From: Candidatus Bathyarchaeota archaeon
GTDB taxonomy: Archaea > Thermoproteota > Bathyarchaeia > Bathyarchaeales > Bathycorpusculaceae
NCBI GenBank assembly: GCA_963815095.1
Contig: CAWFFH010000004.1
Location: 231,790-295,789, forward strand
DNA length: 64,000 nt
Direction: 5' to 3'
Part shown: piece by piece, positions 6,947 to 50,929 of the stretch
How the letters are laid out: each line of letters begins with the position of its first letter
How positions within the stretch are numbered: the stretch's first letter is position 1
Notes under the pieces: generated by a model
Seen by the model: the letters and a program-made list of their open reading frames with translations, nothing else
What the model was told of the DNA's origin: nothing
Databases searched by the model: none
Made by a program: the position numbers and the translations under genes

Positions 6947-9025
6947 TTAGGTTTTGAGTAACTCAAGCATTTTGTCAATTTTGTTGGTAGGTGGCATGCA
7001 GGTTTGGTCACGGCAAACGTATGCAGTGGGTTTGTGTTGGAGTTTCTCGTAGATTAAAGTTGGATTGGACTTGGCTTTTTCGGGCGTCCACATAGTCACG
7101 GTTAAGTTGGGTAAGTACGGTTTTCTTAAAGCCGCAAGCATTGCTACTATTACCTTGTCCGCTGGGTCACCCACTAAAACAACATTAAATGACGGTCCCA
7201 AAGCGAACTCTAACCCCGCAAGCAAAAACGTATGCCCAAGCGGTTGATTTTTAACTTCTTCTGAAAACGCCTTCAGCAGTTTTGTAGCGTAAGTTTCAAA
7301 GTAAACGTCTCCAGTTAAACGTGACAAACGCAGCAGATTATGCATAGCCACCGAGTTTCCTGAAGGCGCTGCTCCATCATAGATTTGTTTGAGTCTCGGA
7401 ACCGAATCGTCATCGGTTGAGGCAGTGAAGAAAAAGCCGCTTGTTTTCTCATCCCAAAATTGGTTAATCATAGTTTTGGTTAATTCAATGGAAACTTCCA
7501 AGTATTTCTCATCAAAACCAGCTTCGTAGAGCTCAATTAACCCGAAAACCAGGTACGCGTAATCATCTAAAAACCCATAAATCGCCCTTTCACCCTTCGC
7601 ATAACGATGGAATAGCTTAGAATCAGGGGTTTTCATAGTTTTTAGAATGAAATCTGTTGTTTTTGTTGCCGCTTCTAGATATTTTGGGTTCCCTAAAACT
7701 TGACTTGCCCGAGCTAAAGCAGCAATCATCAATCCGTTCCAATCAACCAGAACCTTATCGTCTTTTGCTGGATGAACCCGTTTCTCTCTATATTGGAAAA
7801 GGGCGTTAGTGATTTTTGCGAGCTTACCTATAAGTTCATCCATTATTAGTTTTGATTCTGAAGCCACCAGTTCTAGGGGTGTAGCAAGGTGAAGAATATT
7901 TTTTCCTGTTTTGCCTTTTTGTGGCTCATAATAGTTGCCTTCAGATTTTACGCCGAAGAACTTGATTGCTAACTCCGTGTCTTCTTGCGTAGCTTGCCTG
8001 ATTTCATCAAGAGTCCAGAGGTAAAATTTTCCTTCTTCTCCTTCACTATCAGCATCTTCAGCTGAATAGAAACCTCCTTCTAGTGACGCCAAATCTCTCA
8101 AGACATATTCTATTGTTTCCTTTGCTGTTATCATGAATTTTGCCTCGCCCGACTCTTGGTATGCTTCAAGGTAAGCTAACGTTAGCAGTGCTTGGTCATA
8201 GAGCATTTTCTCGAAATGCGGAACCAACCATTGAGCGTCGGTGGAGTAACGATGAAAACCAAGACCTACTTGGTCGAATATACCGCCTAACCTCATTGCG
8301 CGCAGGGTTTTTTCAACCATCGTCCAGGCGGATTTTTCTTTTGTTCTATTATAGTATCTTAAAAGGAATAATAGGTTGTGCGGGGAAGGGAATTTTGGGG
8401 CGTTGCCAAATCCTCCGTTTTCCTGGTCAAAACGTAAAAACAATTGCTCGTAAGCGTTATCAAGCGTAGCTTTGTCGAGATGATTTTCTGTTTCGGCTCC
8501 TGCCTGAATTGTTAATTGCTCTTTGACTTCTTTGCCTATTGATTCCATCTCTGCTTTTCTGGTTTTCCAAATCTCCCCAATTTGAGGAACAAGGCTCAAC
8601 ATCCCAACTGTGCCATACCGATTGTCCTTTGGGATGTAGCTGCCTACGAAAAAAGGGTTTTTTTCTGGAGACATTATGACGTTTAGGGGCCAGCCGCAGC
8701 TTCGTCCCATTGATTGGCAAACTGCCATGTATGCAGCGTCAAGGTCTGGGCGTTCTTCGCGGTCAACTTTGATGCAGATGAAAGTTTGGTTCATTAGCTG
8801 GGCAACTGGGGCATCTTCGAAACTTTCTTTTTCCATAACGTGGCACCAGTGGCATGTTGAGTAACCTATAGAAACAAAAACTGGTTTATCCTCCGCTTTA
8901 GCCCTCTCAAAAGCCTCCGGGCTCCATGGGTACCAATCAACAGGGTTGTAAGCATGCTGAAGAAGATACGGACTTTTCTCTTTAATCAGCCTGTTAGGTT
9001 TTCTTTCTTCAGAAATGTTCTGCAT
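6947..9025 (-). CDS. Thioredoxin-domain YyaL/SPATA20 (DUF255) family protein
   Basis: [25 protein letters not shown] and PHFEKMLYD motifs. Confidence 0.92.
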
Positions 9026-9096: not shown

Positions 9097-9543
9097 TTAA
9101 TATTTTACGCTGAGGTAAAGCAACACTGACAAAGCAGCTAACTCAAAGAGTGCAGGGAGAAATGCGAACGGTCCAAGACCGTATACTCTAAATCTAAACA
9201 GTCCAGTTACGAATGGGTGCGATGCAATGTCTTTTAGTAGGAATGCTGCTGCGAAAATTATCAGTCCAACTGTAAAGGGTGACCGAGTTTTATTATAGAT
9301 GCTTAAATATGATATTAAAACGATTACGAGTAATGCGATATTTATTGTCGCTATTATTGTGAAGGCTACGTAGAAGTATTCAAAGTCACCTGGAACGGAT
9401 CCTCCAGGTGGTAAAGCGCGTCTTACTAGAAAAGTGGGCTCGTGTAATGCGACTAGTGCCCAAAGAGCGGTAACTACTGCGACAGTTGCTATAATAGTGA
9501 TAATTATTCCTACTTTGAATCTATTGCTCATTTGTTTCTCCAT
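9097..9543 (-). CDS. Membrane protein cotranscribed with an HTH regulator
   Basis: Four hydrophobic segments; 18 bp downstream of the HTH gene. Confidence 0.75.
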   Translation of the reverse strand: MEKQMSNRFKVGIIITIIATVAVVTALWALVALHEPTFLVRRALPPGGSVPGDFEYFYVAFTIIATINIALLVIVLISYLSIYNKTRSPFTVGLIIFAAAFLLKDIASHPFVTGLFRFRVYGLGPFAFLPALFELAALSVLLYLSVKY

Positions 9544-9561
9544 TTTGGTGTTCTCCTTTTT

Positions 9562-9864
9562 CTACTTTTTCCCGATTTTTTGCATAATCTCCTCAAATAG
9601 GAAATAATTGTCTTCCATTGTTTGAGATAGAAAGTAAGTTGCTCCATACCTGTCACCGACAGAAGTTATTATTTTGTTCTTCTCTAAGACTTCAAGGTGA
9701 TGCCGCATCGTTTTGTAATCCATTTTTAGCGAGGTAGCAAGTTGATTTGCGTTCTGTGGAGTCTCTTTGAGCGAAGTGATTATTTTTGCACGGGTTGGTC
9801 CGCCTCTGGTACCTGCGATTAGCCATCCTAGCAGGTATTTTAAGGAACGTGCATTTGCGGACAT
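9562..9864 (-). CDS. ArsR-like winged-helix transcriptional regulator
   Basis: GTRGGPTRAKII...NANQLA...DYKTMRHHLEVL. Confidence 0.85.
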   Translation of the reverse strand: MSANARSLKYLLGWLIAGTRGGPTRAKIITSLKETPQNANQLATSLKMDYKTMRHHLEVLEKNKIITSVGDRYGATYFLSQTMEDNYFLFEEIMQKIGKK

Positions 9865-11800: not shown

Positions 11801-12921
11801 TTCTCTTCCTCGATTAGGTGGATGTTTCGATGCTCAATAACGTCCTTGGACTTTTCCGAACCAAGTTTTCTGTGCACTTCTGTTACCTGCAAGCCTTTAA
11901 TTAGGTTTAACTCGCCGCTGCTAAAGTTTGGGTTACCCTTGGCAAACGCTACGCCAGTTTCGTCGATGATGCTTACGACGTCGCCGACGTTGAAGCTGCC
12001 AACTACCCGTAACATGCCAACGGGGAGCAAGCTGGAACCATCAAGAATAGCTTTTTTTGCGCCTTCATTAACATGGATTTGTCCCTTTACCGCTGCACCG
12101 TAAGCTATCCAGCGTTTCACAGCGGGCATTCGGCTTTGAGGCTTAAAGTAAGTTCCAATATCTTTCCCAGCGAGAATATCCAAAATTACGTTTGCTTTTC
12201 GGCTGTTGGCTATGACTACGGGGATGCCGCAGGAAGTCGCGATTTCGGCTGCCTTGATTTTGCTTTGGATTCCCCCCCGACCCAATTTACTTTTACCGTT
12301 AAGGGAGTTTTTCAGTTCAGCGGTGATGGCATCGACTGTTTTGATAAGTTCGGCTCCTGGTTGCGAGGGATCCGCTGTATATAATCCTTCAACGTCGGAG
12401 AGAATAATCACTAAATCTGCGCACACGGCTCCAGCAACAAGAACTGAGAGTATGTCGTTGTCGCTAAAGTTTACTTTGTAGCCTTCTGTACGCATGAGTT
12501 CATCTACGGAGACTACGTCGTTTTCGTTTATTATTGGGATAACCCCGATTTTGAGAAGTAAAGCCAGCACATCGCATGTGTGAACGTAGGATGCCCTGTT
12601 AGAGAGGTCCTCAGCAGTCAGCAAAATTTGAGCAACTTTCAAACCAAATTTCTTGAAAAGCTCCCGATACTTTGCCATTAAAACGCTCTGACCTGTGGCC
12701 GCTGCTGCTTGCTGGAAAGCTACATCTTTGGGTTTAGGGGGAATTTCAAGTTCTGCGATGCCCGCTGCAACTGCTCCTGAGGTTACGAGTACTATTTTGT
12801 CTCCTTGTTTGGTGGCGCCGGCTATTTGGCTGGCTAAGTTTTCCATTTCTTTTTCATCCAGCTTTCCCTCGCTGGTTATGCCGTTGGTGCCGACTTTAAC
12901 AACGATTAATCTTGAAGGCAT
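11797..12921 (-). CDS. proB: Glutamate 5-kinase with PUA domain
   Basis: IVVKVGT, VTSGAV, INENDVV, DNDILS and C-terminal PUA; 4-nt overlap with proA. Confidence 0.96.
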   Translation of the reverse strand: MPSRLIVVKVGTNGITSEGKLDEKEMENLASQIAGATKQGDKIVLVTSGAVAAGIAELEIPPKPKDVAFQQAAAATGQSVLMAKYRELFKKFGLKVAQILLTAEDLSNRASYVHTCDVLALLLKIGVIPIINENDVVSVDELMRTEGYKVNFSDNDILSVLVAGAVCADLVIILSDVEGLYTADPSQPGAELIKTVDAITAELKNSLNGKSKLGRGGIQSKIKAAEIATSCGIPVVIANSRKANVILDILAGKDIGTYFKPQSRMPAVKRWIAYGAAVKGQIHVNEGAKKAILDGSSLLPVGMLRVVGSFNVGDVVSIIDETGVAFAKGNPNFSSGELNLIKGLQVTEVHRKLGSEKSKDVIEHRNIHLIEEEK

Positions 12922-17679: not shown

Positions 17680-17819
17680 ATTCTTCGCAGACTAAGCTCT
17701 GCATAAAAATTTTTTTCATTTTAACTACAAACTTGTTAGGTGTTCCTCTGGTGGAACAGCGTGTTCCATGAGTAGAACTAAATATCTTATTTTGCATTAA
17801 CCAGAATGGTTGATGCAAC

Positions 17820-18725
17820 ATGAACTACGTCCAAAAAACTGTTGTTTTTACAATTGCATTTTTGACTTTAGCCTTATGTTTTGGTCAATTATCAGAAATA
17901 AAATGTGATTTAGCGACACCAGCATCTCCTGACATAATTCAGAAAGCCTACACCTGCTTAACTACCGTTTACAATTTAGACTTCAACCACTACACTGTTA
18001 CACTTGGCGAAAACTATACATTGCCTTCAGGGCCAAATGACACATCCGTTTGTCAAGGCGTCGATTATTTACTCGACGCCCCAGATAGCAAATTGACAGC
18101 GGTATTCGTTTTCCAAGATGGATTCCTATATCAGTTTGCACTAAGACCCATTAATGGCCCTATAATTGCATCTAGACAATATCCAAATATGACGGCCGCA
18201 GCAAACGATTTCCTCACCCGTTACCAAACTATAAGTGACGTAGATTTGACGCCCCTAATTCGCCTCTTGTACACACTAAACCAAGGCAATACCACATCAG
18301 CTACCGCAGGTAACCTTAAATTAAACATGGATAACGGTACGATTTTTCCCGGTCATTATGCTACAACTTTCACTTGGAGGTACGCATCTGACGATGCCTG
18401 CGTCAATTTAATTTTTGACAATGGTGCATTTTACACGTTTATGGATGCCCCCAAATTTACGAGCCAAGATAGCGTTCAAGCCATTGCCGATTTAGCCGAA
18501 TTACCAACCGCTTCACCTTCGCCGGTAAATTCGCCCTCGTTAACTCCAAGCCTTACCCCGTTTTCATCAACTGTGAAGTCTCAGCAAAATCAAAATACCC
18601 AATTAGACCCAAAAACGCCAACAGAAAACAGCACAGAATACATGATTGTATTTGCGCTCTTAATAGTCATCGCTGTCTGTGTCACTGTTATACTATTCAT
18701 GAAGAAAAGGGCGGATCGTCTTTAG
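17820..18725 (+). CDS. Secreted lineage-specific surface protein with S/P/T linker and C-terminal TM anchor
   Basis: Signal peptide, Ser/Pro-rich linker, TM helix followed by KKR. Confidence 0.75.
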   Translation: MNYVQKTVVFTIAFLTLALCFGQLSEIKCDLATPASPDIIQKAYTCLTTVYNLDFNHYTVTLGENYTLPSGPNDTSVCQGVDYLLDAPDSKLTAVFVFQDGFLYQFALRPINGPIIASRQYPNMTAAANDFLTRYQTISDVDLTPLIRLLYTLNQGNTTSATAGNLKLNMDNGTIFPGHYATTFTWRYASDDACVNLIFDNGAFYTFMDAPKFTSQDSVQAIADLAELPTASPSPVNSPSLTPSLTPFSSTVKSQQNQNTQLDPKTPTENSTEYMIVFALLIVIAVCVTVILFMKKRADRL

Positions 18726-19444
18726 GTTTTCATTCTTCGCCTAACCGCAGGATTTAGTTCCGAGACTCTTTTTAAGGCCAACTCAAACGTCTCGTCCTGC
18801 ATCAATTCCTTTTTAACAAATACTCCTGTTCTCCCGACAGTATCCCGCTTCATCAAAGCATGAACCCTATCCAAAACCGTCTCAGCTGCAACTCCCAAAA
18901 TTTTGGCTGCAGACTCTTCTCTTCCGATGACGCCGCTCTCAACGTGCCCAATCTCCGTAGGTTCAATAAGCATAAGTCGTTTATCCACGCCCACAACTCT
19001 CACATTCGCTTTAAGCTGGTTCAGATTGACTTCTCCGCCGAAACGATAAAATTCCCGCTCAACACGGCGCATCTCCATAAGCGGAAAAGAAACCGTTGTT
19101 TCCTCATCAATTTCGATGTGGGCTTTCATGGCGTAAGATGGTGTTGCTTGGACGATAAACCTTGAATTGATTGGGATTTTGGCTTTTTCAAGAGCGGCTT
19201 CAACCAAGAAACTGTTCTGCACCTCAGGAATGAAAACGTCAATGTCGCTGCCTTGTTTTACATCGCCTCTTGCTATGCTCCCATGCGTAAGCGACTGTAG
19301 ATGAAACGCTTCTAACGCCGACATGACCCAAACCGCTTTTCCCCTAAGAACCTTTAGCTTCTCCCAGCGTGCACTGGAATATGTTACTTCTTTGTATTCT
19401 CCATGTCGTGTGGGTTTAACAGCCATTTTTACGCGCCAAATCAA
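18722..19444 (-). CDS. Archaeal nucleotidyltransferase (COG2413-like)
   Basis: HGSIARGDV...SDID and GVDKRL motifs; true start probably MAVKP. Confidence 0.85.
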   Translation of the reverse strand: MIWRVKMAVKPTRHGEYKEVTYSSARWEKLKVLRGKAVWVMSALEAFHLQSLTHGSIARGDVKQGSDIDVFIPEVQNSFLVEAALEKAKIPINSRFIVQATPSYAMKAHIEIDEETTVSFPLMEMRRVEREFYRFGGEVNLNQLKANVRVVGVDKRLMLIEPTEIGHVESGVIGREESAAKILGVAAETVLDRVHALMKRDTVGRTGVFVKKELMQDETFELALKRVSELNPAVRRRMKT

Positions 19445-19714
19445 AATTGATTAATAGAAATAAATAATAAAGCAAAATAATGTTTGAATTGTTGGTAAAC
19501 ATTATTTTTCTGTTGGATCTGTTTTTTCTTTGACCTACATAATCCTCATAATGCTTACTTGCGTGTTTCAATAATAAATATTATTTGTTACTTCCAATCA
19601 CTAGGGAATATGAACTTGTTTACTAAGCTGAGGTTAAATTATTTGATGTAAGACAAAAATTCATTATTTGAAATTCATAAAACCTATAATAGACTTCAAA
19701 CGAAAAGATAGACA

Positions 19715-19789
19715 AAGAGTTGCAGTCATGAAACCTTCCCCTTCTCCATTAAGGTTCATCCCAACTTTTATCCCGAGACTGCAACTCTT
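19715..19789 (+). ncRNA. Candidate sRNA (13-bp outer stem, TGAAACCTT/AAGG core)
   Basis: AAGAGTTGCAGTC/GACTGCAACTCTT perfect inverted repeat; TATA CCTATAAT at 19683-19690; core shared with 37779-37841. Confidence 0.6.
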
Positions 19790-19965
19790 AAACTAATTAC
19801 TCGATGAATCGTCTTAAGATCAAATTGTTAATTTATAGCGTGTTTTTACGGAGAATTGCTTTAAGGAAAATTCAATATTTCATTAACAAAAAGAATGTTT
19901 CGTTGATAATGTTCATGGGAGAAGACATAATTAGTTTAATATCCAATCAAAAGAGAGGAAACCCG

Positions 19966-20904
19966 ATGGATACACTTGTTTGCAGCGCTTGTAAGAGCAA
20001 AGAAGCCTTTTTTTTCAGGCAATACTCAGGTGAGCGGCTATGCAAAAAATGCTTCACCGAATCCATCGAGACAAAAGTCCGCTCAACCATAACTCGTTAC
20101 CATATGCTTAAATTCGATGACAATTTGGCGGTAGCGGTTTCAGGTGGCAAAGACAGCCTCAGCATACTGCACATACTTGCAAAACTGAAGAAGTCCAGAC
20201 CAAAAACCCACCTAACCGCAGTCACTGTAGATGAAGGCATCAAAGGCTACCGCGACGAAGCTTTAGAAATCGCCGCATCAAACTGCCAAAAACTCGAAAT
20301 CCCACACCACATCGTTTCATTCAAAGAACTTTACGGTTTTACACTTGACGAAATGATTTCTAGGGCACGCGAAAGGGGGAAGACAGAGTTAACTGCATGT
20401 GCTTACTGTGGAGTGTTACGGCGTAAGGCCATTAATGCTGGTGCGCGACAGGTTAAAGCCACCAAAGTCGCCACCGGGCATACTCTCGACGACGAGGTGC
20501 AGACAGTTCTGATGAACATTTTCCATGGCGACATCGCAAGATTAGCAAAAGAAAAACCCGTCACCAGTGAAGTCCATCCATTATTCGTCCAGAAAATTAA
20601 GCCCTTCTGCGAAATTCCCGAAAAAGAAAGCGCACTTTATGCTTACGTTAAAAAAATCAAGTTCCAAGACACACCTTGCCCATATGCTTCCGAAGCCCTT
20701 CGCAATGATATCAGAGGGATGCTTAACCGAATGGAAGAAAAGCATGCTGGAACCAAATTCACAGTTTCCAAAGCCATTGAACGTTTACGTCCTGCTCTTG
20801 AAGAAACCGCTCGAAAAGAAGATTTCAAAACTTGTACTGAATGTGGAGAACCGTCGGCGTTGGATTTGTGTAAAGCTTGCGAATTGCTCAGGCACGTTCG
20901 TTAG
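19966..20904 (+). CDS. ncsA: tRNA 2-thiolation protein, TtuA/Ncs6 (TIGR00269) family
   Basis: N-terminal Zn finger, PP-loop SGGKDS, CAYCGVLRR, TGHTLDD, CPY and C-terminal Zn finger; likely start is ATG 19966. Confidence 0.9.
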   Translation: MDTLVCSACKSKEAFFFRQYSGERLCKKCFTESIETKVRSTITRYHMLKFDDNLAVAVSGGKDSLSILHILAKLKKSRPKTHLTAVTVDEGIKGYRDEALEIAASNCQKLEIPHHIVSFKELYGFTLDEMISRARERGKTELTACAYCGVLRRKAINAGARQVKATKVATGHTLDDEVQTVLMNIFHGDIARLAKEKPVTSEVHPLFVQKIKPFCEIPEKESALYAYVKKIKFQDTPCPYASEALRNDIRGMLNRMEEKHAGTKFTVSKAIERLRPALEETARKEDFKTCTECGEPSALDLCKACELLRHVR

Positions 20905-22836: not shown

Positions 22837-23148
22837 TGGGCTGGCGAGTTGGTGTGTGGCTTTCGGACCCAAATTTGGGTCTGAGGAAACTCCGCCCACA
22901 TGTAGAATTGCAGTCCTCCGGGACAGCGCGAGAGCGTTGGCAACGGAGCAGAAACGAAACGTCCACCCAGACAGGCAATGACACATTTGTGATGTCGAGT
23001 GCGCTGGATTGGAAGCGGTGAAACGGCCGTCCTGCAAGTGGAAAGGGCAAACAGTCGCCGATGAAGCATCTACCGGAAGGCGCGGGTAGCCCGATTAGCC
23101 GAATGCCACAGACAACAGAAGGCGGGTTACTGCCAACACACCAGCCCA
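22837..23148 (+). ncRNA. rnpB: Archaeal RNase P RNA
   Basis: GAGGAAACTCC (CR-I) and AACAGAAGGCGGGTTAC (CR-V); terminal P1 TGGGCTGG/CCAGCCCA; GC-rich island. Confidence 0.95.
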
Positions 23149-23315
23149 AATCTTTGATCCATATCCACTTTTCCAGCGTCGTAGAAAAAGTCGCCCTAAT
23201 TCTTGAACATCTGAGTTAGATATATTTAGCCAGCTTCTAATTTTTACCTCGATTTCTATCAGTTTCTATTAATCCAAATCAAGGCTTTACAGAAATGACA
23301 ATTAAAAGAATATTG

Positions 23316-23690
23316 TTAATCCAGTGTTTTACTAGTAAATGGCGTTTCACAGTAAGGACAAAAAGAAAAATTCGTAGATTGCAATTCGTTACCACAGTTT
23401 CTACATTTAACTAGCATTCCGTTTGCGGGTTTAAATTTGGCACCCAGAATTCTTGGTTCGGATTGCTTGATATTTTTCGCTGCATATGCTGCTGCTATTC
23501 CGATGGCCAAAGAAATAGCTGAGCTAATTGCTAATGAGAAAAAATATTCTTTGTAAGGGTATTGAGGATAAGTTCCTAATGGACCGAGGTCGACTTTAAT
23601 CACATAATATTGGGTGAAGACAGTTGCAACAATTAAGATTAGAAAGATACTAGTGGCAATATTTCCAATTATTTCAGCTGAGTTACCCAT
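23316..23690 (-). CDS. Membrane protein with C-terminal zinc ribbon
   Basis: Two TM segments; CRNCG...FCPYC. Confidence 0.75.
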   Translation of the reverse strand: MGNSAEIIGNIATSIFLILIVATVFTQYYVIKVDLGPLGTYPQYPYKEYFFSLAISSAISLAIGIAAAYAAKNIKQSEPRILGAKFKPANGMLVKCRNCGNELQSTNFSFCPYCETPFTSKTLD

Positions 23691-23940
23691 AATTTAATTC
23701 TCAAACATTATTTATCAAATTCTAATTTAAATTTATAACATCTCTGGTTGTCAAATGCAAGACACCTCGCTTAACGAGTGCACTTCCCTAATGCTTACCC
23801 ACCTCGCAAGGAAGGGCTTTAACTTGCAACATTCTAATCCTATTACAATGCAATTTTGAGTCTATCCAGTAAGACGCGAAAGCGAATAGAAAAGAGAATG
23901 CATATATTTAGAACAAATCTACATTATATTAGTGAATTTT

Positions 23941-27396: not shown

Positions 27397-27858
27397 TCTA
27401 AGTGCCCGTTTCTAATTCAAGGTTAATCAAATATAACATTTTCGAAATGAACTTAGGTAAATAATAGAACTATGGGCACTTCATTTATCAAAAATGCTTA
27501 TAACTAGGCATCAATAAAAGGAAAAGTGAGAATGATATAAACAAAGTAAGTGAAAAATACTAACCCAAAAGCGGGTTACCGCCAATACATCATCAAATCG
27601 GTACCTTTCTAAAGTTGTAATTAACAGAAGCTCAATCGTATGTAACGTAGGATTGCTTTATTTAACATCTAGAGCACTGTATTATTGGCAAATGACCTAA
27701 AATTTAAACTAAGAGGCTACTATAGTCAAATATGAAATGAATTTTGTAGAATTCTTAGAATTTATCAGCGAAAATCCTGATATTATAGTTCTTAAAAGGC
27801 AGTTTTTTTTATATTACTTTGCGTAATTCGATTTGATACGCGATAACGAAGAATAGAA

Positions 27859-35924: not shown

Positions 35925-36102
35925 CAGTTATTTTAAAATAACTGAACCTATCTATTAATTGTTTTATTCTTCCAAAAGGTGCTTAAATGGCGCTACTACG
36001 CCTTTTGAACCCAAAGCTTTTTCTCTATCTTAGAAACATGTGAAAAAGTTAGTCAAGAAAGTTTGACTAAACAATCCGGATTCAGATCAGAGGTTAGTCA
36101 AG
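35925..36102. promoter_or_regulatory. Palindromic operator-like sites in a divergent promoter
   Basis: Perfect 20-bp palindrome CAGTTATTTTAAAATAACTG (35925-35944); TTAGTCAA-N6-TTGACTAA (36049-36070); extra half-site at 36093-36102. Confidence 0.55.
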
Positions 36103-36158
36103 GTTTCTTTACGAAAAAGCTTTAAAACGGCTGCGTCAACGGGCTATATTGATGAGAA

Positions 36159-37287: not shown

Positions 37288-37569
37288 TCATTTTCTGTAA
37301 ATTAGGAGAGTGTCAGGTTCAGTTTTGTTTGGGGAATATTTTGTTTTCCAAAAACTGCCCGTTTGGAAGTTAAGTTGATGATTAAATAGTGTGCCTTGTA
37401 CGCATTTTTTTGTTTCCTCATCAAGAATTCCTCTAATAATAATTTGATACCCCGAGGTAGGAGTGTTGGGTGAGGTTAATTCTAATCCATGTCCATCCAA
37501 ACCTCTGCAGTTATCAAGGAGTTCTTTTAACACTGATATTGCTTCTTCACGTTTCAAACCAATTCCCAC
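37288..37569 (-). CDS. Small hypothetical protein, R-x2-A-x3-[ILM]KE[IL] family (copy 3)
   Basis: LKREEAISVLKELL...GYQIIIRG...LLIYRK. Confidence 0.7.
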   Translation of the reverse strand: MGIGLKREEAISVLKELLDNCRGLDGHGLELTSPNTPTSGYQIIIRGILDEETKKCVQGTLFNHQLNFQTGSFWKTKYSPNKTEPDTLLIYRK

Positions 37570-37778
37570 CTATCTCAAAGTAAATTCTCATAAAAACATT
37601 AGGCTTAGGTTACAATCTAAAATAGGCAACGCTCAAGGATTGTTTGAAATTGATGTTTTCAAATGTCAAACCATCATTCTAAGGATAACTTATTGATTAT
37701 TTTGAGCATTAGATGATTGGGTGAACCCGTATGTGTAAGGGGCAAAATATTTATACATAAATAACACTGTTATACGTA

Positions 37779-37841
37779 ATGAGCAGGAAGCATAAATTGA
37801 AACCTTGCCCAAGGACCAATCCCCTTATGCTTCCTGCCCAT
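37779..37841 (+). ncRNA. Candidate sRNA (13-bp outer stem, TGAAACCTT/AAGG core)
   Basis: GCAGGAAGCATAA/TTATGCTTCCTGC perfect inverted repeat; TATA ATTTATAC at 37749-37756; T5 at 37846-37850. Confidence 0.6.
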
Positions 37842-37924
37842 ATAATTTTTCATACAATCATAATTTAATTTTTAATTAAAAAGACAATAACAAAATAGAG
37901 GGAATTTAATTAATCCCTAATCAA

Positions 37925-38578
37925 TTAGGTTTCTAAGCTTGTGCGTTTATTTTGGCCAATTCCGATTTCTACTTCAGGAATCTTTTCTTTTAGCCTATTT
38001 TCTGCGATACATTCTGCTTCTTCTAAGATTTGCAATGCATCTGCACTTGCCATTATCGTATTTACCGGTGTATCAGCACCTTGGTTGGTCGTAGTTGTAA
38101 CTATGTCTGAAAGAAGGTTTCCAATGTTTCCGAGTTCTTGGCTTGCTTCAGGAAATATGCTGCACATTTCAGAGCGGATATTATTTATCATGCTTTTAGC
38201 GGGGCTCAACACTGCAACTACGTCACCCAGTTCTGAAACCGTACTCAACCGCATCGACATACTTTGCATGGCCAGGGAAGCTTGTGAGAGCATTTTTTCA
38301 ACTTTACGTATCTCGCCTAATTCTGTAGCAAGAATGTTTGCGCGCGCCGTATCCCTTTCTGTCATGGCTTTCACAACCCGCTTAAAAATGTCCGCATCAC
38401 GAACCTCAAAACGTTGCACTGCAGCATCCAATGTCCTAGTCTGAGCGTCAAGACGTTGAGTAACCACGCCAATTTGCTCTTTGAGGTTTACTTGCGGCTT
38501 GGCCATGTTTTTAATCTTTGAAACAACATTAGGCTCTTTTTCTTTTTCCGTCCACCTGCTAATGAAATGGTTAACCAA
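37925..38578 (-). CDS. Snf7/ESCRT-III family protein (CdvB1/2-like)
   Basis: RDADIFKRVV...ANILATELGEIRK...MRLSTVSELGDVV...LSPA; ILEEA near the C-terminus; no C-terminal wH extension. Confidence 0.85.
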   Translation of the reverse strand: MVNHFISRWTEKEKEPNVVSKIKNMAKPQVNLKEQIGVVTQRLDAQTRTLDAAVQRFEVRDADIFKRVVKAMTERDTARANILATELGEIRKVEKMLSQASLAMQSMSMRLSTVSELGDVVAVLSPAKSMINNIRSEMCSIFPEASQELGNIGNLLSDIVTTTTNQGADTPVNTIMASADALQILEEAECIAENRLKEKIPEVEIGIGQNKRTSLET

Positions 38579-44434: not shown

Positions 44435-45157
44435 ATGAAACCGAAAAACTACAAACGTGGGTATCCCGTCGCAGTGCTCGTTGGAATCGAGCAGGACCAT
44501 GCGGCATTGTGGCAGATTTTTAGCCAAGTTGCCAAACAACAACAAACCATTGCTCTAAATGGAGAGCGAAGAGATTCTAAAGTAATCTATAGCTTTCACG
44601 AAAGTATAATTAACGCATTAAGACCCGTGCTAAAAGAGGGCGTAAGAAGCATAGTTGTTGCTTCGCCATCCCGAACCAGTTATGCTCAAGACTTCCTCAG
44701 CCACATCAAAGGCCACCACGCATGGCTTTTGCAGGGCACAAACAAAGCATCCATCTCGCAGATAACGGGTTCTGCAAGTTCGCCATCACAAGTAGGTGCT
44801 TTAACAAAAACATCCAGCTTCAAAGAGTTAATCCAAGAAAACGCAGTAGAGGAAACAGAGAACTTGCTTGAGATTCTCGAGAAACGTCTTAACAAAACTG
44901 ATGATTTGGTGTTTTTTTCGCTGGTAGAATCAGAAAACCTCATTCTAAACCTGCAGGCACCAGGAAAACCTCAGCCTGAATATCTAATGTTAACTAATGA
45001 TTATCTTGCAGCGACCCGTCAAAAGAATCGAGTGAACAGGCTCATGCAGATAGCCGCGAGAAACGGGGTAAAAACACGAGTTATAGATGCTGAGTCGAAC
45101 GCTGGCAAACGCTTGACGCAATTGGGTGGAATTGTTTGCTTGGCAAAACGCGGCTAA
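44435..45157 (+). CDS. Pelota/aRF1-like protein with only M and C domains
   Basis: IVVASP, AVEETENLLE and ESNAGKRLTQLGGIVCL align with the C-terminal part of pelota (EHEAGAKLLSLGGIVAL). Confidence 0.7.
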   Translation: MKPKNYKRGYPVAVLVGIEQDHAALWQIFSQVAKQQQTIALNGERRDSKVIYSFHESIINALRPVLKEGVRSIVVASPSRTSYAQDFLSHIKGHHAWLLQGTNKASISQITGSASSPSQVGALTKTSSFKELIQENAVEETENLLEILEKRLNKTDDLVFFSLVESENLILNLQAPGKPQPEYLMLTNDYLAATRQKNRVNRLMQIAARNGVKTRVIDAESNAGKRLTQLGGIVCLAKRG

Positions 45158-45161
45158 CGGT

Positions 45162-45893
45162 TTAGAGAAAGCCTTCGTGTTTTAACTCCCCTATGGAGAT
45201 TTTGCCTGTATGCAAAGCAGTAGCTACCAAAGCACCTGTAACTCCAAGTTTTCTCAGTTCAACCAAGTCGTTCATGTCTCGGACTCCCCCACCAACATAA
45301 ACGTCAACGCCAACCTCCGTGATTACTTTTTTGACGAAATCAACGTCTACTCCTTCACCGCTGCCAACCCGAGCTAAATCCAAAACAATCACTTGGGAAA
45401 CACCCATTTGCTTGAAGTCTTGCAGTAGACATATAGGACTTTTGCATCCGTCAAACCCCAATTTAACAAGAATTTTATCGCCCTTCAAATCTAAACTCAC
45501 AACAACACGGTCACTTCCAAAACTCTTGACCGCTTCCCCAATGAAACTCTCGGTTTGCAAAGTCTCTGTTCCTATAATAAGCTTGGAAACTCCACTATCC
45601 AGTAACTTTTGGGCTCTTCCTATACTTGTTACACCTGCATCAGCCAATAATCTGAGACCAGTTTCGTTATTAATGTTTTTGAGGGTTTGAAAATTGGAAG
45701 AGCAATCGATAATGGCATCTAAATCAGCCACATACAACTCGTTAAAACCAAGTTCCTTGAACGCTTTAGCTACCACTACTGGTTCTATTGATTTAACAAG
45801 GTTGCTTTCTAGCGGCTTATACTCGTTTCTTTTGCCCCTAACCGCGTGTACAACTTTGCCTCCCAAAACGTCAATTACTGGGATAACTTTCAA
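45162..45893 (-). CDS. HisA/HisF-related TIM-barrel protein (C1-cofactor-linked type)
   Basis: IPVIDVLGGKVVHAVRG, YVADLDAI, VLDLARVGSGEG and YVGGGVR. Confidence 0.85.
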   Translation of the reverse strand: MKVIPVIDVLGGKVVHAVRGKRNEYKPLESNLVKSIEPVVVAKAFKELGFNELYVADLDAIIDCSSNFQTLKNINNETGLRLLADAGVTSIGRAQKLLDSGVSKLIIGTETLQTESFIGEAVKSFGSDRVVVSLDLKGDKILVKLGFDGCKSPICLLQDFKQMGVSQVIVLDLARVGSGEGVDVDFVKKVITEVGVDVYVGGGVRDMNDLVELRKLGVTGALVATALHTGKISIGELKHEGFL

Positions 45894-46042
45894 ACTAAAG
45901 CACCGACAGAATCAAACTCTAACACATACAAAAACCTAACCTTTCTTAACAAATACCCTTTAACCGAACTGAATAAAGAAAGGTTGCTTTTTTCACAGGA
46001 AAACTTTAAAGGCACCAACAAGCCGCATCAATATGACCTTAC

Positions 46043-46783
46043 GTGAAGCTGCTCATAAGTCCCATGAATGAGAAAGAAGCCTTAGAAGCTATTGCTGGAG
46101 GCGCAGATATTATAGATGTCAAAAACCCCATAGAGGGCGCTTTGGGAGCGAATTATCCTTGGGTTATCAAGCAAATAAAAGAAGTAACGCCCAAGAATCT
46201 TAAAGTTAGCTGTACATTAGGCGAGGTTGGGAACCTTCCAGGATCAGTTGCGCTAGCCGCACTTGGTGCAGCATCGTTGGGCGTAGATTACATAAAAGTG
46301 GGTCTTTACGGAATCAAAACCCCCGAGGAAGCCATTTTTCTTTTACAAACCGTCAAACGAGCAGCCAAAGAATGCAACCCAAAAATCAAAATTGCCATTG
46401 CCGGCTACGCTGATGCAGAAAAAATCGGCGCAATCAACCCGTTGCTCATTCCCGAAATAGCACATCAAGCCAAAGCGGATGTTGCCATGATCGATACCTC
46501 AGTTAAGGACGGCAAAAACCTCTTTGACCACCTCACAAAAGAGCAATTAAAGAAATTTGTGGATTCAGCCCATTGTCTTGGTTTGGAAGCTGCGTTGGCT
46601 GGCTCATTGAGAAAACAGGATTTACCCATCGTGTACAGTTTAGGCGCTGACATTGCTGGGTTAAGAGGCGCAGCCTGCACAAACAGCAATCGCGTCACGG
46701 GACAAATCAACCGAAAATTGGTCAGCGAATTGGTTGAGGTCGTTCGGCAAGCAGAAAGCCAGGTGTGCATCAAGAGGGCTTAG
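46043..46783 (+). CDS. mfnB: (5-formylfuran-3-yl)methyl phosphate synthase
   Basis: GGADIIDVKNPIEGALGA, DYIKVG, DTSVKDG, ALAGSL and GLRGAAC. Confidence 0.93.
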   Translation: MKLLISPMNEKEALEAIAGGADIIDVKNPIEGALGANYPWVIKQIKEVTPKNLKVSCTLGEVGNLPGSVALAALGAASLGVDYIKVGLYGIKTPEEAIFLLQTVKRAAKECNPKIKIAIAGYADAEKIGAINPLLIPEIAHQAKADVAMIDTSVKDGKNLFDHLTKEQLKKFVDSAHCLGLEAALAGSLRKQDLPIVYSLGADIAGLRGAACTNSNRVTGQINRKLVSELVEVVRQAESQVCIKRA

Positions 46784-47922
46784 CTTTGCTACCTAAAGGG
46801 TTAAGCGAAAAGACTGTTTTAGCTGAACTAAAAAAGATGCATACTCTCGACGAAGGGTATGCTAATGGTAAAATCCTATGTTCAATGTGTACCAAACCCC
46901 ACCCAATAGCTGAAAAAGCCTACCGAATGTTTTTTGGGTCAAATTTGGGTGATTCAGGACTTTTTCCTGGGAGTGCACAGATAGAAAAAGAAGTTATTAA
47001 CCAACTTGCTTCTCTTCTTCATGACAAAAGCGCAGTTGGCTTTGTTGTATCAGGCGGCACCGAAGCAAACCTGATTGCGTTGTTAGCAGCAAGAAACATG
47101 GCGAAAATCAATCAGCCTGAAATTGTTCTGCCTGAGTCGGCTCATTTCTCTTTTACTAAAATCTGCAATCTATTGAATCTCAAACCTGTGTATGCAAGCC
47201 TAGACAATTCTTTCAGGGTTGACCCGTTAATCGTTGAAAAGTGCATCAACAAGAACACCGTTGCAATTGTTGGAACAGCTGGAACTGCAGAGTTAGGCGT
47301 AATTGACCCCCTTGATAGACTCTCGGAAATTGCGTTGCGGCATAATGTTTACTTGCATGTTGATGCTGCATTTGGCGGTTTAGTAATTCCCTTTCTGAAG
47401 AATACAAAGCCAAGCTTTGACTTTAATTTAGAAGGCGTGCGATCTGTCACCGTTGACCCACACAAGATGGGTATGGCGGCAATACCGGCAGGCGGAATAC
47501 TCTTCAAAAACGCCCAAACTCTGGATTTTATAAAAACTGAAACACCTTACCTAATCGACAAGGTCCAATATACCCTCGTTGGGACAAGAACTGGAGCCGC
47601 AGCAGCTTCCGCTTGGGCAGTGCTTAAAGCATTGGGCGTGGAAGGTTTTCAAAAGGTTGTCGCAAACTGTATGAAAAACACAAATTTTCTCGCTGACTCC
47701 ATCAAAAAGCTCGGTTTTAACCTTGTCACCGAGCCATCTTTGAATCTGGTTGCTTTTCACTGCGAGAATACAAAGGGTGTGGTTGGGAAATTGAGGGAGC
47801 GTGGTTGGTTTGTTTCCTATGTTCCGCGATATGATTGCGTTAGAATCGTTGCAATGCCACATGTAAAGAGGCGGCATTTAGTTGCTTTTTTGAAGGATTT
47901 ATGTGAAATCGAAAAGCTTTAA
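46765..47922 (+). CDS. mfnA: L-tyrosine decarboxylase (PLP-dependent)
   Basis: SMCTKPH, NLGDSGLFPG, SGGTEAN, HVDAAFGG and DPHK. Confidence 0.93.
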   Translation: MHQEGLALLPKGLSEKTVLAELKKMHTLDEGYANGKILCSMCTKPHPIAEKAYRMFFGSNLGDSGLFPGSAQIEKEVINQLASLLHDKSAVGFVVSGGTEANLIALLAARNMAKINQPEIVLPESAHFSFTKICNLLNLKPVYASLDNSFRVDPLIVEKCINKNTVAIVGTAGTAELGVIDPLDRLSEIALRHNVYLHVDAAFGGLVIPFLKNTKPSFDFNLEGVRSVTVDPHKMGMAAIPAGGILFKNAQTLDFIKTETPYLIDKVQYTLVGTRTGAAAASAWAVLKALGVEGFQKVVANCMKNTNFLADSIKKLGFNLVTEPSLNLVAFHCENTKGVVGKLRERGWFVSYVPRYDCVRIVAMPHVKRRHLVAFLKDLCEIEKL

Positions 47923-47962
47923 GGCGTCTTTAACGTACCAAACGAATCTTGAAGGTTGACGA

Positions 47963-49192
47963 TTGAAGGTTATCGTTTACGAGCACGTTTCAGGCGGAGG
48001 ATACGCCGAGCAACCTATTCCACCTAACGTTTTAACCGAAGGATTTAGTATGCTTCACTGTGTCGTTGCAGATTTTAAAGCTGCAGGAAACGAAGTAACC
48101 GTTTTAATGGATGCCAGAATATCAAAACTGAACCCGCCCATAGACGCCGACTGCATAGTACCAATATTTTATCCTCAGGAACCAGCGAAATTCATAAACA
48201 ACATCGCAAAAATCAACGACGCCATCTATATCATTGCCCCCGAAGCACGACAAATCCTGCAATCATTTGTTGAACTCGCTCAAAAAACAGGAAAAATCTC
48301 ACTCAACAGTGAATCCGAAACAATAGGCAAGGTTGCAGATAAAGCGGACCTGTACAAACATTTGCAGGAAAACGGTTTTCCAACGCCAAAAACATTAATC
48401 TTTACCTTTAAGGACAGTTTAGCAGAAGTAAAACAAGCCATCAATCACGAGCTTAATTATCCCTTAGTCTTCAAGCCAGTGGACGGTGTGGGATGCGGAG
48501 GATTAAGTTTTGTTAAGGAAGAAGCTCAAATACAGAAAGCAATAGAAAAAATAAAGTCTGAATCAAGTAACACACGTTTTATGGTTCAAGAATTCATCAA
48601 TGGTGAATCGGCAAGCGTCAGCTTACTGTCCACCGGCAAAAAAGCAATGTCGCTCAGCTTAAACAAGCAAAACATAATTCTTGGGGATCCCGAATCAGCT
48701 TCAAGCTATGAAGGTGGTATTGTTCCGTTTGATTATTGGTTAAAACAGGACGTATTCAAAGTTGCTGAGAAACTTGCTGAAACCTTCTCTGGTTTGAAAG
48801 GTTACGTGGGGGTTGATTTTATTTTAACTGAACATAAAGCTTGTGTGGTTGATGTTAACCCAAGGTTGACCACGTCCTTTGTGGGTTTACGTAAAGTTGC
48901 TAATTTCAATGTTGCTGGCGCGTTAGTGAATGCTGTTTTGAAAGGCAAATTGCCAGTTAAACCAGAAAATCGCGGTGTTGTTTGCTTTTCGAAATTAGAA
49001 ACCCCAAAACCTTCTCTCAGTGTTTTCCAAAAATCAAGTAAGTTGGAAGATGTGGTTTCTCCCCCTTTTCCTTTAGAAGATGAATCAAAATCCAATGCAC
49101 TCGTAATTGGACATGGAGAAACCTTGGAGATTGCAAGATTGCATTTAGAAGAAGCTAAAAAGCACTTACTCAACACTCTATCTTGGGGCTAA
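47963..49192 (+). CDS. mfnD: ATP-grasp tyramine--L-glutamate ligase
   Basis: EGFSML, IIAPE, KPVDGVG, QEFINGE and VNPRLTTS; cluster context. Confidence 0.85.
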   Translation: MKVIVYEHVSGGGYAEQPIPPNVLTEGFSMLHCVVADFKAAGNEVTVLMDARISKLNPPIDADCIVPIFYPQEPAKFINNIAKINDAIYIIAPEARQILQSFVELAQKTGKISLNSESETIGKVADKADLYKHLQENGFPTPKTLIFTFKDSLAEVKQAINHELNYPLVFKPVDGVGCGGLSFVKEEAQIQKAIEKIKSESSNTRFMVQEFINGESASVSLLSTGKKAMSLSLNKQNIILGDPESASSYEGGIVPFDYWLKQDVFKVAEKLAETFSGLKGYVGVDFILTEHKACVVDVNPRLTTSFVGLRKVANFNVAGALVNAVLKGKLPVKPENRGVVCFSKLETPKPSLSVFQKSSKLEDVVSPPFPLEDESKSNALVIGHGETLEIARLHLEEAKKHLLNTLSWG

Positions 49193-49196
49193 CAGT

Positions 49197-50258
49197 TTGG
49201 TTGATGCGTTAGGTTATGATATTGGTGGCGCCAACACTAAAGCAGTACTTGTCACAGTTAAAAACGGGAAGCTGGTTGATTCTGAAGTAGCGGTTGAGTA
49301 TTTTCCAATCTGGAAGCAACCTGAAAAACTTGTTAGTGTTCTTTTAACTCTGAAAGAGCGGTTGGGCGCGAATGGGTTTAAAGGTGTAGGCGTAACCATG
49401 ACTGCTGAATTGTCTGACGTTTACCAAACAAAAAAAGAAGGAGTCAACCACATTTTAGGCTGCACCAAGAAGGCTTTTCCTAATATGCCAATTTACGTAT
49501 TGAATGCAAACGCTCAACTAGAACCCCTTGACATCGCCGTTCAAGAGCCTCTTGGGGTCGCGGCGGCGAATTGGGCAGCAACTGGCTGGATAGTGGCTAA
49601 TTATCTAAAAAATTGTGTCGTGGTTGATGTGGGAAGCACAAGTACCAGTATAATTCCCATAGCAAATGGTAAAGTTGTGGCGCGTGGCAAGACTGATTTG
49701 GATAAGCTCATCTATGGTGAACTCGTTTACACAGGAAGCCTCAGAACCAATGTGGCAGCAATCGTGCAATCAATCCCAATCAAACAGGGCCTTGCCGGTG
49801 TCTCGTCGGAACTTTTCGCGTTATCAGGTGATGTACACTTAGTCTTGGGCAACATTACCGAACAGGATTACAATAGTGAAACGGCTGATGGGCGAGGAAA
49901 AACCGTTCCTGGAGCAATGGCTCGATTAGCTCGAGTGGTCTGTGCTGACGCGGAAATGTTGACTAAACATGAAATCTTCAAAATGGCACAGTTCATTTAT
50001 GAAAAGCAACTGCGACAGATTGCGGAAGGCTTAACCAAAGTTTACTCTTACACAAAATCGCTGACTCAAGATAAGGTTCCAGTAGTTGTTACTGGACTTG
50101 GAAAAATTTTCCTCGCACGGAGCGCTACTGAAACGCTTTGCGTAGACGCGATTATTGATTTAGATACCTTATTACCCAAAAAAGCCGTTTTGGCTACACC
50201 TGCGTTTGGCGTTGCATTAATGATGGCAAACAAACTTGAAGGGGAAACCGCCAAATGA
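49197..50258 (+). CDS. mfnF: Hydantoinase-A-family methanofuran coupling enzyme
   Basis: GYDIGGANTK, TMTAELSD, AAANW, DVGSTST and TADGRGK. Confidence 0.88.
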   Translation: MVDALGYDIGGANTKAVLVTVKNGKLVDSEVAVEYFPIWKQPEKLVSVLLTLKERLGANGFKGVGVTMTAELSDVYQTKKEGVNHILGCTKKAFPNMPIYVLNANAQLEPLDIAVQEPLGVAAANWAATGWIVANYLKNCVVVDVGSTSTSIIPIANGKVVARGKTDLDKLIYGELVYTGSLRTNVAAIVQSIPIKQGLAGVSSELFALSGDVHLVLGNITEQDYNSETADGRGKTVPGAMARLARVVCADAEMLTKHEIFKMAQFIYEKQLRQIAEGLTKVYSYTKSLTQDKVPVVVTGLGKIFLARSATETLCVDAIIDLDTLLPKKAVLATPAFGVALMMANKLEGETAK

Positions 50259-50929
50259 AAGCCACTGTCATTAAAGTTGGCGGCAGTTTAGCTCTGTACC
50301 CTGAAAAGCTAAGAGCCTTATGTGTAATGTTAAGTGAAGTCTCCAAAAACCAAAGGTTGATTGTGGTTCCTGGAGGCGGCGAATTTGCTGACGTCGTTCG
50401 AAGTTTGGATAAGAGGATTTCTTTGTCAAGTAGTGCCTCGCATCGAATGGCGATTTTAGGTATGGACCAATATGGTTTGCTTCTTTCGGATTTGATACCT
50501 AACTCAGTAATCGTAAGCAAACTTGAAGAAATAAAATATTTTTTAGATTCAGGCGGATTGCCCGTTTTCTTGCCCTCGAATTTATTGTTAGGCGAGAACG
50601 TATTGGAGAACTCTTGGGATGTTACATCGGACTCAATTGCACTGTTCATTGCAGGCAAGCTGGAGACGACAAAGGTTTTGTTGGTTACAGATGTAGACGG
50701 GATTTACATGGAAGATCCAAAAACCAATTCAGAAGCTAAATTGATTAGGAAATTATCAGCTGGTGAGCTTTTAGCTATGAACAAACGGACAAGCGTGGAC
50801 AAAGCCTTGCCTAAGTTGCTTTTGCACTCGTCCATTGACTGCTTCGTAGTTAATGGGTTTTTCCCTGAAAGGATTGAAGCTGTATTGAATGGTCAAGATA
50901 CCCTTTTCACTTTGATTAAAAGCGGTTAA
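50255..50929 (+). CDS. mfnE: Amino-acid-kinase-family [5-(aminomethyl)furan-3-yl]methyl phosphate kinase
   Basis: VIKVGGS, VPGGGEFAD, SWDVTSDS and TDVDG. Confidence 0.85.
   Translation: MKATVIKVGGSLALYPEKLRALCVMLSEVSKNQRLIVVPGGGEFADVVRSLDKRISLSSSASHRMAILGMDQYGLLLSDLIPNSVIVSKLEEIKYFLDSGGLPVFLPSNLLLGENVLENSWDVTSDSIALFIAGKLETTKVLLVTDVDGIYMEDPKTNSEAKLIRKLSAGELLAMNKRTSVDKALPKLLLHSSIDCFVVNGFFPERIEAVLNGQDTLFTLIKSG

Follow-up and report, generated by a model that had tools for sequence, protein, structure and literature searches.

What is encoded by the long hairpin in the intergenic region upstream of an ncsA-like gene in a Candidatus Bathyarchaeota genome: a small RNA, part of an mRNA leader, or a structure of another kind? 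The hairpin, here termed c1, occupies positions 19715-19789 (plus strand) of the 64,000 nt stretch of DNA that was analysed in full, hereafter the window. Sequence inspection and an inverted-repeat search found it to be exact in sequence and coordinates, and the outer stem, inner stem, loop and 3' bulge that an initial annotation had described are all in place. A second hairpin, c2, lies about 18 kb away. Their parts are as follows.

19715-19727, plus strand: 5' arm of the c1 outer stem, 13 bp and perfect (inverted-repeat search, fold)
19728-19737, plus strand: 5' strand of the c1 core, AUG-AAA-CCUU, common to c2 (core comparison)
19738-19750, plus strand: apical loop of c1, 13 nt, C/U-rich, containing UUCUCC (unpaired in the ensemble)
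19751-19759, plus strand: 3' strand of the c1 core, AAGG-UU-CAU (hand alignment)
19760-19776, plus strand: 3' bulge of c1, 17 nt, with CCC at its start as in c2 (unpaired in the ensemble)
19777-19789, plus strand: 3' arm of the c1 outer stem (inverted-repeat search, fold)
37779-37841, plus strand: c2, the paralogue, with stem 37783-37795/37825-37837, core 37796-37806/37811-37820, loop GCCC and bulge CCCC (fold and core tests)

Two hairpins with a common core

The predicted fold of the c1 plus strand has the expected shape (-22.8 kcal/mol, matched by none of 200 shuffles), with a single bulged A in the inner helix 19728-19737/19751-19759; when 19712-19995 is folded as a whole, the c1 structure remains intact and does not pair with the start of ncsA. 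The z-scores of the folds (-6.14 and -3.62 for the plus and minus strands of c1, -6.18 and -5.82 for those of c2) prove little by themselves, since these stretches had been picked for folding. The frequency of such repeats is a separate matter: with spacers of up to 100 nt, no other perfect inverted repeat in the window reaches the 13 bp of c1 and c2, and both are intergenic, neither overlapping a protein gene. Shuffled windows contained a mean of 0.17 perfect 13 bp repeats, one being present in 34 of 200 and two in none of the 200. Further long-range inverted repeats of 10-11 bp are found between genes at 27400-27481 and 36013-36123, and do not have the c1/c2 core.

The outer arms of the two elements are unrelated, being identical at only 4 of 13 nt, but the cores agree at 12 of 13 nt in register and at the same offset from the outer stem, a likeness reached by 6 of 200,000 shuffles. 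This confirms that the inner core of c1 matches the element 18 kb away; it also means that the two are related by core and shape and are not copies of one another, so the word 'copy' used in the initial annotation was too strong. Without anchoring on the stem the likeness is weaker: the global alignment score was attained by 18 of 20,000 shuffles, the longest common word, of 9 nt, by 133 of 5,000, and 3 of the 63,793 29-mers in the window scored as well. In a structure-anchored alignment made by hand, the 5' sides of c1 and c2 respectively consist of the 13 bp arm, A-UG or AUUG, AAA, CCUU, and a loop of 13 or 4 nt, whilst the 3' sides consist of AAGG, UU or AC, CA-U or CAAU, a bulge starting with CCC of 17 or 4 nt, and the arm. 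The common core can thus be written UG-AAA-CCUU/AAGG-NN-CA, with CCC in both loops. This two-member structured element is real and statistically supported.

Two other structural features were observed. The segment 37733-37742, just 5' of the TATA box of c2, can pair with 37821-37830, comprising the CCCC bulge and 3' arm, which would give an alternative fold in a longer transcript. The minus strands of 19715-19789 and 37779-37841 each have three runs of at least three G, and neither has a canonical four-run quadruplex.

Transcription signals and neighbouring genes

The host is Bathyarchaeia-like, an uncultured archaeon of the sediment or soil type. The window encodes an archaeal RNase P RNA, two tRNAs, TBP, pelota and a CdvB1/B2-like protein, and its named protein matches are to Bathyarchaeota or Bathyarchaeia. 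The genes and signals surrounding the two elements are listed here.

18722-19426, minus strand: divergent left neighbour of c1, a conserved archaeal gene with a nucleotidyltransferase domain (Pfam NTP_transf_2)
19679-19690, plus strand: BRE/TATA-like AAAA-CCTATAAT, the putative c1 promoter, with CCTATAAT at 19683-19690 (matrix score 1.8, weak; unchanged in the related contig L023 described below)
19966-20904, plus strand: right neighbour of c1, an NcsA/TtuA-like tRNA thiolase (NCBIfam NF047749, E 2.9e-67, under the curated cut-off)
37288-37569, minus strand: a neighbour of c2, an ORF of 93 aa (no Pfam, NCBIfam or PADLOC match)
37743-37757, plus strand: BRE/TATA-like CAAAATA-TTTATACA of c2 (matrix score 6.9)
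37846-37850, plus strand: T5 tract, the putative archaeal terminator of c2 (sequence)
37925-38578, minus strand: the other, convergent neighbour of c2, a CdvB1/B2-like ESCRT-III gene with its stop 84 nt from c2 (NCBIfam NF041005, E 1.3e-43, under the curated cut-off)

The element had been described as sitting alone in a gap of 520 bp. The gap is 521 bp long, from the ORF at 18722-19444 (minus strand) to the ncsA ATG at 19966, and 'alone' slightly overstates the case because it also contains an AT-rich 12 bp perfect inverted repeat at 19474-19508. This repeat lies 5' of the nucleotidyltransferase gene, differs in L023 in the spacer only, and may be a transcription factor site. No partner gene common to the c1 and c2 neighbourhoods was found with Pfam or NCBIfam, and PADLOC, run on 17 window proteins for a defence context, gave only two marginal matches; atlas look-alikes of the ORF at 37288-37569 all score below 0.8 and are mostly viral. 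Elsewhere in the window, a 12 bp hairpin with a 3 nt loop lies at 17792-17818, between tbp and the ORF at 17820, and is kept with changes at 6825-6849 of L023; about 640 bp following rnpB (23142-23795, including the ORF 23316-23690) are missing from L023 (compared with 12182-12291); and the genes at 44435-50929 form a cluster like those for methanofuran or pterin biosynthesis (4-HFC-P synthase, pyridoxal decarboxylase, ATP-grasp, hydantoinase-like, kinase and HisA-like).

Promoters were scored against a background of 30,477 intergenic positions, using a 14-position matrix whose training set was 46 upstream regions from the window. On the plus strand, TATA-like words end equally far upstream of both elements (motif end at -22), with c2 ranking in the top 1.4% of the background and c1 in the top 32%; the minus-strand scores of the two elements, at 45% and 55% of the background, are not good in either case. 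The matrix is noisy, placing rnpB and the two tRNAs at 43%, 16% and 46% of the background in the equivalent slot. A sigma-70 scan was also run, which is not meaningful for an archaeon. The AAAA-CCTATAAT word said to precede c1 by 25 nt is present, although the actual distance from 19683-19690 to the first base of the element is 24 nt. A TTTTT tract begins around 4-5 nt past the end of c2, and similar tracts are found 3' of rnpB and the tRNA-Val gene; the first T-tract downstream of c1 is some 53-54 nt away.

Downstream of c2 on the plus strand, no protein gene with a family match is found before 42719, around 5 kb away. With its TATA box, its T-tract and no downstream gene on the same strand, c2 has the appearance of an independent transcription unit. 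Hence the motif common to c1 and c2 cannot be only the 5' leader of ncsA, although c1 taken alone may still be read through into that gene; the initial annotation had named a mere part of the ncsA 5' UTR with no conserved structure as an outcome that would refute a small RNA. The small RNA claim itself is partly supported, by the two-member structure and by the promoter and T-tract of c2; it is weakened by the middling promoter of c1, by the distance of the latter from a T-tract and by the minus strand of c2 folding better than the plus strand (-31.6 against -25.4 kcal/mol). Signals of strand do conflict: two positions of c2 are A.C on the plus strand and G.U on the minus strand, favouring the minus strand, whilst the one change in the c1 orthologue of L023 leaves a G.U pair on the plus strand.

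These conflicts bear on an improbable alternative in which both elements act in cis, c1 as the 5' part of a 250 nt ncsA leader and c2 as a stabilising hairpin in the 3' region of the cdvB1/B2 mRNA, on the minus strand. It would account for the lack of a T-tract near c1, for the low matrix score of the region upstream of ncsA (-0.1), and for the better folding of c2 on the cdvB strand, 84 nt past the stop codon. However, the same core would then have to work in opposite orientations, and c2 has the best promoter score on the strand with no downstream gene; furthermore, ncsA has a word of its own, TTTAATAT, seen by eye at 19935-19942, and the fold of c1 avoids the ncsA start. Less credible still are short or leaderless ORFs, of 22 codons in c1 (19728-19796) and, from the predicted start site, 29 codons in c2 (37779-37868), for which the hairpins would be regulatory or incidental. 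The shared core is in the same frame in both and the c2 ATG coincides with the predicted 5' end, but the start codons lie within helices, the peptides have in common only K-P and one R, and neither gives a Pfam match at E<=1. Separate small RNAs are the likely interpretation of c1 and c2.

Distribution and comparison with known RNA classes

An exact-core pattern covering both cores (40 bits) was scanned over 185,579 species genomes; having been built from two sequences, it misses variant cores. Thirty loci were found, against 30.4 expected by chance, and 29 are bacterial, with no more than seven perfect base pairs in the outer stem. The remaining locus is the c1 orthologue in L023, a Candidatus Bathyarchaeota contig 94.7% identical to the window over 12 kb. 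This orthologue (8747-8821) is identical at 74 of 75 nt, the difference being an A>G change in the 5' arm of the outer stem that keeps the pairing. As 74 of 75 is not above the identity of the flanking intergenic DNA (442 of 464; P=0.12), the contig is too close to the window to show conservation. The exact-core scan yielded no c2 orthologue in L023, nor, with the exception of L023, was the exact core present in any other archaeal genome of the collection. Many relatives have a neighbour protein that is 82-90% identical; some of them are NCBI assemblies, not necessarily in the scanned set. Given that such relatives exist and the other scanned archaea do not have it, the exact core would either be confined to a narrow lineage or be more variable than two sequences suggest.

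The alignment of c1 with 37779-37841 and a search with a covariance model had been proposed as a check. The cores were aligned by hand, and a model built from the core found no third copy in the window and L023 (78 kb), the next match having an E-value of 0.48. A relaxed descriptor gave two more matches in the window (10614 and 48659), both within ORFs, and blastn searches with c1 against phage and plasmid records gave 4 and 9 short matches respectively, at chance level (E=3).

This distribution bears on a rather unlikely explanation, that the elements are functionless, non-transcribed DNA relics: a repeated core, either a mobile element remnant or a protein-binding site, with flanks made into perfect repeats by template switching. 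Local template switching can turn flanks into perfect inverted repeats, and confinement, as far as the scan shows, to a single species-level lineage, the absence of excess conservation and the conflicting strand signals would all be accommodated. Yet the terminal repeats within a MITE family are alike, whereas the arms here are unrelated; there is no third copy and, by eye, no flanking direct repeat; and the same core is found at the same offset in two independent perfect stems, one of them with a TATA box and T-tract. A MITE or similar short mobile repeat was rejected in its own right, given the 4 of 13 identical arm positions and the lack of another copy in 78 kb. Only L023 was compared for an empty site, and the c1 site is occupied there. 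The finding that the arms are unrelated but both perfect, the shape being kept without the sequence, instead supports small RNAs as the best explanation.

Searches for known families were negative. At gathering thresholds, Rfam 15 identified only the RNase P RNA and the two tRNAs in the window, and at E<=10 the best matches (E-values of 2 for c1 and 0.11 for c2) fell far short of the cut-offs; no CRISPR-DR or snoRNA model came close to its cut-off at either element. No description of a regulatory RNA from Bathyarchaeia was found in Rfam or in the literature covered, most subscription journals being outside that coverage, and c1 and c2 are apparently undescribed.

Box C/D guides have a box C of RUGAUGA and a box D of CUGA; CUGA is absent from both strands of c1 and c2, which have only box C-like words with one mismatch. 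Such guides also form 10-12 perfect pairs with rRNA or tRNA; complementarity to the rRNA operons of Halococcus and E. coli, used as proxies for the rRNA of the host, did not rise above shuffle level in any of 16 tests. H/ACA guides have a two-sided pocket, a K-turn or K-loop, and ACA 14-16 nt from the pocket; here the bulge is one-sided, tandem GA pairs are not in register and there is no ACA at the expected distance. The bulge-helix-bulge splicing substrate is a 4 bp helix between two 3 nt bulges, whilst in c2 the 4 bp helix is flanked by a 3x2 loop and a 4 nt bulge, and c1 has a helix of 3-5 bp and a bulge of 17 nt. The hammerhead core CUGANGA and the T-loop word GUUCRA are absent from both strands, and there was no ARAGORN call, so that hammerhead and tRNA-like RNAs were also rejected.

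A constant core with variable loops is nonetheless guide-like. The ATTGAAAC of c2 resembles the sequence in which many archaeal CRISPR repeats end on the 3' side, and c1 has an inner length of 49 nt, close to that of C/D RNAs. With no box D, no two-sided pocket, rRNA complementarity at shuffle level and no cas families, guides of a known machine (C/D, H/ACA, or CreA or crRNA-like) are largely refuted already and seem very improbable. No cas family was detected with Pfam among the 68 window proteins, which argues against a CRISPR-cas locus. CreA needs two repeat-derived units that flank a spacer, and processing by Cas6 (PMC8501985). Like CreA and minimal CRISPR RNAs the present elements are short, and c2 has a handle-like 8-mer; no flanking repeat-like units or cas genes were found, and the word resembling a handle lies buried in a helix and is degenerate in c1. 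Logos of Bathyarchaeia CRISPR repeats, part of the material in PMC10541130, may also bear on a CRISPR-like origin.

There is also a structural likeness to selenocysteine insertion elements. Euryarchaeal SECIS elements, which PMC11227280 defines by a GAA_A bulge, three S-S pairs and a position within the 3' UTR of selenoprotein genes, also have two stems, an A-rich internal loop, a short upper stem and a variable apical loop, and the 5' and 3' sides of c2 likewise hold GAA and A, respectively. Departures from that definition (PMC11227280) are nevertheless apparent: c1 has UU in place of the 3' A and c2 is only a loose fit to the bulge; the upper stem, CCUU/AAGG, provides two G-C pairs and not three consecutive ones; and no credible selenoprotein, with an in-frame UGA on the same strand, lies beside c1 or c2 when TGA is read as Sec. 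The Asgard (eukaryote-like) SECIS, with its AUGA_GA quartet at the foot of an upper helix, was rejected too: c1 has AUGA, and GA before the 3' arm, but no stackable helix, and c2 has neither.

Possible modes of action

Judged from their sequences, c1 and c2 are most likely two small RNA genes, so far undescribed and belonging to a narrow lineage of Bathyarchaeia, with a function that we infer. They would be paralogous non-coding RNAs, separately transcribed from the plus strand, about 75-80 and 65-70 nt long. A long closing stem of free sequence would clamp the 5' and 3' ends of each, and a short core (a helix, the AAA internal loop and the CCUU/AAGG helix) would be fixed in sequence, presumably for a protein partner, whilst displaying two single-stranded C-rich segments. 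These C/U-rich segments may pair in trans with the G/A-rich ribosome-binding regions of mRNAs, such that translation initiation would be blocked. We infer the transcription, strand, protein partner, base-pairing mechanism and any target from these features; that the elements are stand-alone small RNAs is the likelier part, and stand-alone small RNAs acting by anti-Shine-Dalgarno pairing are a tentative proposal. The absence of the exact core from every other scanned archaeal genome stands against the small RNA interpretation as a whole.

There are precedents for such pairing, which are analogies and not evidence of membership. The C-rich loops of 6C RNA pair with mRNA targets, with no need of a chaperone, and block translation initiation in mycobacteria (PMC6486639); this RNA of Actinobacteria, including mycobacteria, is likewise small and structured and exposes C-rich loops. 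Compared with that account of 6C RNA (PMC6486639), the present elements have no Rfam match, consist of one nested hairpin carrying a loop and a bulge, are from an archaeal host, and have pairing that is predicted. In Methanosarcina mazei, an anti-RBS loop of sRNA154 masks a ribosome-binding site, sRNA41 masks ribosome-binding sites inside polycistronic mRNAs, and sRNA154 is conserved across its genus (PMC5867862). These two and sRNA162 (PMC3510493) are, like c1 and c2, intergenic and archaeal, and the candidate target of c1 would similarly be polycistronic; unlike sRNA154 and sRNA41 as described in PMC5867862, c1 and c2 are short, have one long closing stem, form a paralogous pair without an Rfam match, and have a core found here in one lineage.

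The UUCUCC of the c1 apical loop is the complement of GGAGAA, the type of Shine-Dalgarno word used in this genome: GGAG is present 4-20 nt upstream of 9 of the 58 window genes, and GGAGAA in 4 of the 58 upstream regions. One candidate target can be listed, as a lead only.

9536-9575, minus strand: the stretch in which the ArsR-like ORF 9562-9864 ends, together with the ribosome-binding region of the membrane protein ORF 9097-9543 (pairing energy)

Taken together, the two c1 loops can pair with two minus-strand segments, 9575-9564 and 9544-9536, which lie in the antiparallel order required, with a joint energy of -25.5 kcal/mol compared with -17.9 kcal/mol for the next of the 58 initiation regions, a result found in 11 of 749 shuffles. 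The site was, however, found post hoc in 64 kb and ranks only 13th among all window sites, leaving aside the self match, and the single loops are not significant against targets (fractions of 0.07 and 0.50 of 300 shuffles). Homologues of ORF 9097-9543 often begin at the second Met (3 of the 8 sequences read), for which reason its GGAGAA-type word is likely to be its Shine-Dalgarno sequence, the membrane protein probably starting at 9531. Genes at 9097-9864 on the minus strand comprise the ArsR-like gene followed by this conserved Bathyarchaeia membrane protein (PF26119 in precomputed matches) and then a gene with a DUF255 thioredoxin domain.

A separate match concerns c2. Its blocks ACCTTGCCCA (37802-37811) and TATGCTTCC (37826-37834), of 10 and 9 nt, are contiguous in the ncsA frame at 20673-20691 (plus strand), unchanged in L023 (near 9705); a match of 19 nt was reached by 37 of 13,533 shuffles. 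The gene adjoins c1 and not c2, and the best such match of c1 itself is at shuffle level. This too is a lead only, being post hoc among many tests and having one block buried in the c2 stem.

Anti-Shine-Dalgarno pairing has further difficulties: the c2 loops, at 4 nt each, are short for seeding base pairs, only complements of 10-11 nt were seen for them among initiation regions, and any UUCUCC loop would pair with the Shine-Dalgarno words of this genome. Slightly more doubtful is the possibility that the RNAs are protein ligands, either decoys or scaffolds of a small RNP, in which the protein would read the core and CCC and loop length would be irrelevant. The two elements share the core and the CCC with which both loops start, whilst the loops themselves vary from 13 to 4 nt and from 17 to 4 nt, and the 4 nt loops of c2 would suit protein binding better than pairing. 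Against this, the two neighbourhoods have no partner gene in common, and a protein-bound core would be expected in related species, where the exact-core scan did not find it. Pairing in trans is placed just ahead of it, a narrow preference given that the single loops are not significant, the candidate site ranks 13th and c2 has no lead of this kind.

A bolder reading, which we regard as very doubtful, is that c1 and c2 are the first of a modular class of Bathyarchaeia small RNAs, combining a constant protein-docking core, an arbitrary stem and two exchangeable, single-stranded inserts that would act as a split guide. It is suggested by the antiparallel match of the c1 loops to two neighbouring mRNA segments and by the contiguity of the c2 blocks in the ncsA frame. 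If the pair were ordinary anti-Shine-Dalgarno RNAs of one lineage, the gain would be modest; were the core to dock a protein whilst the loops guide, the result would be a new RNP; and a split guide, if true, would mean that a major uncultured archaeal class has an RNA-guided system distinct from C/D, H/ACA and CRISPR RNAs. With its fixed core and free stem, the paralogous pair offers a concrete and searchable entry to RNA regulation in Bathyarchaeia, a class of archaea that is abundant and has hardly been cultured.
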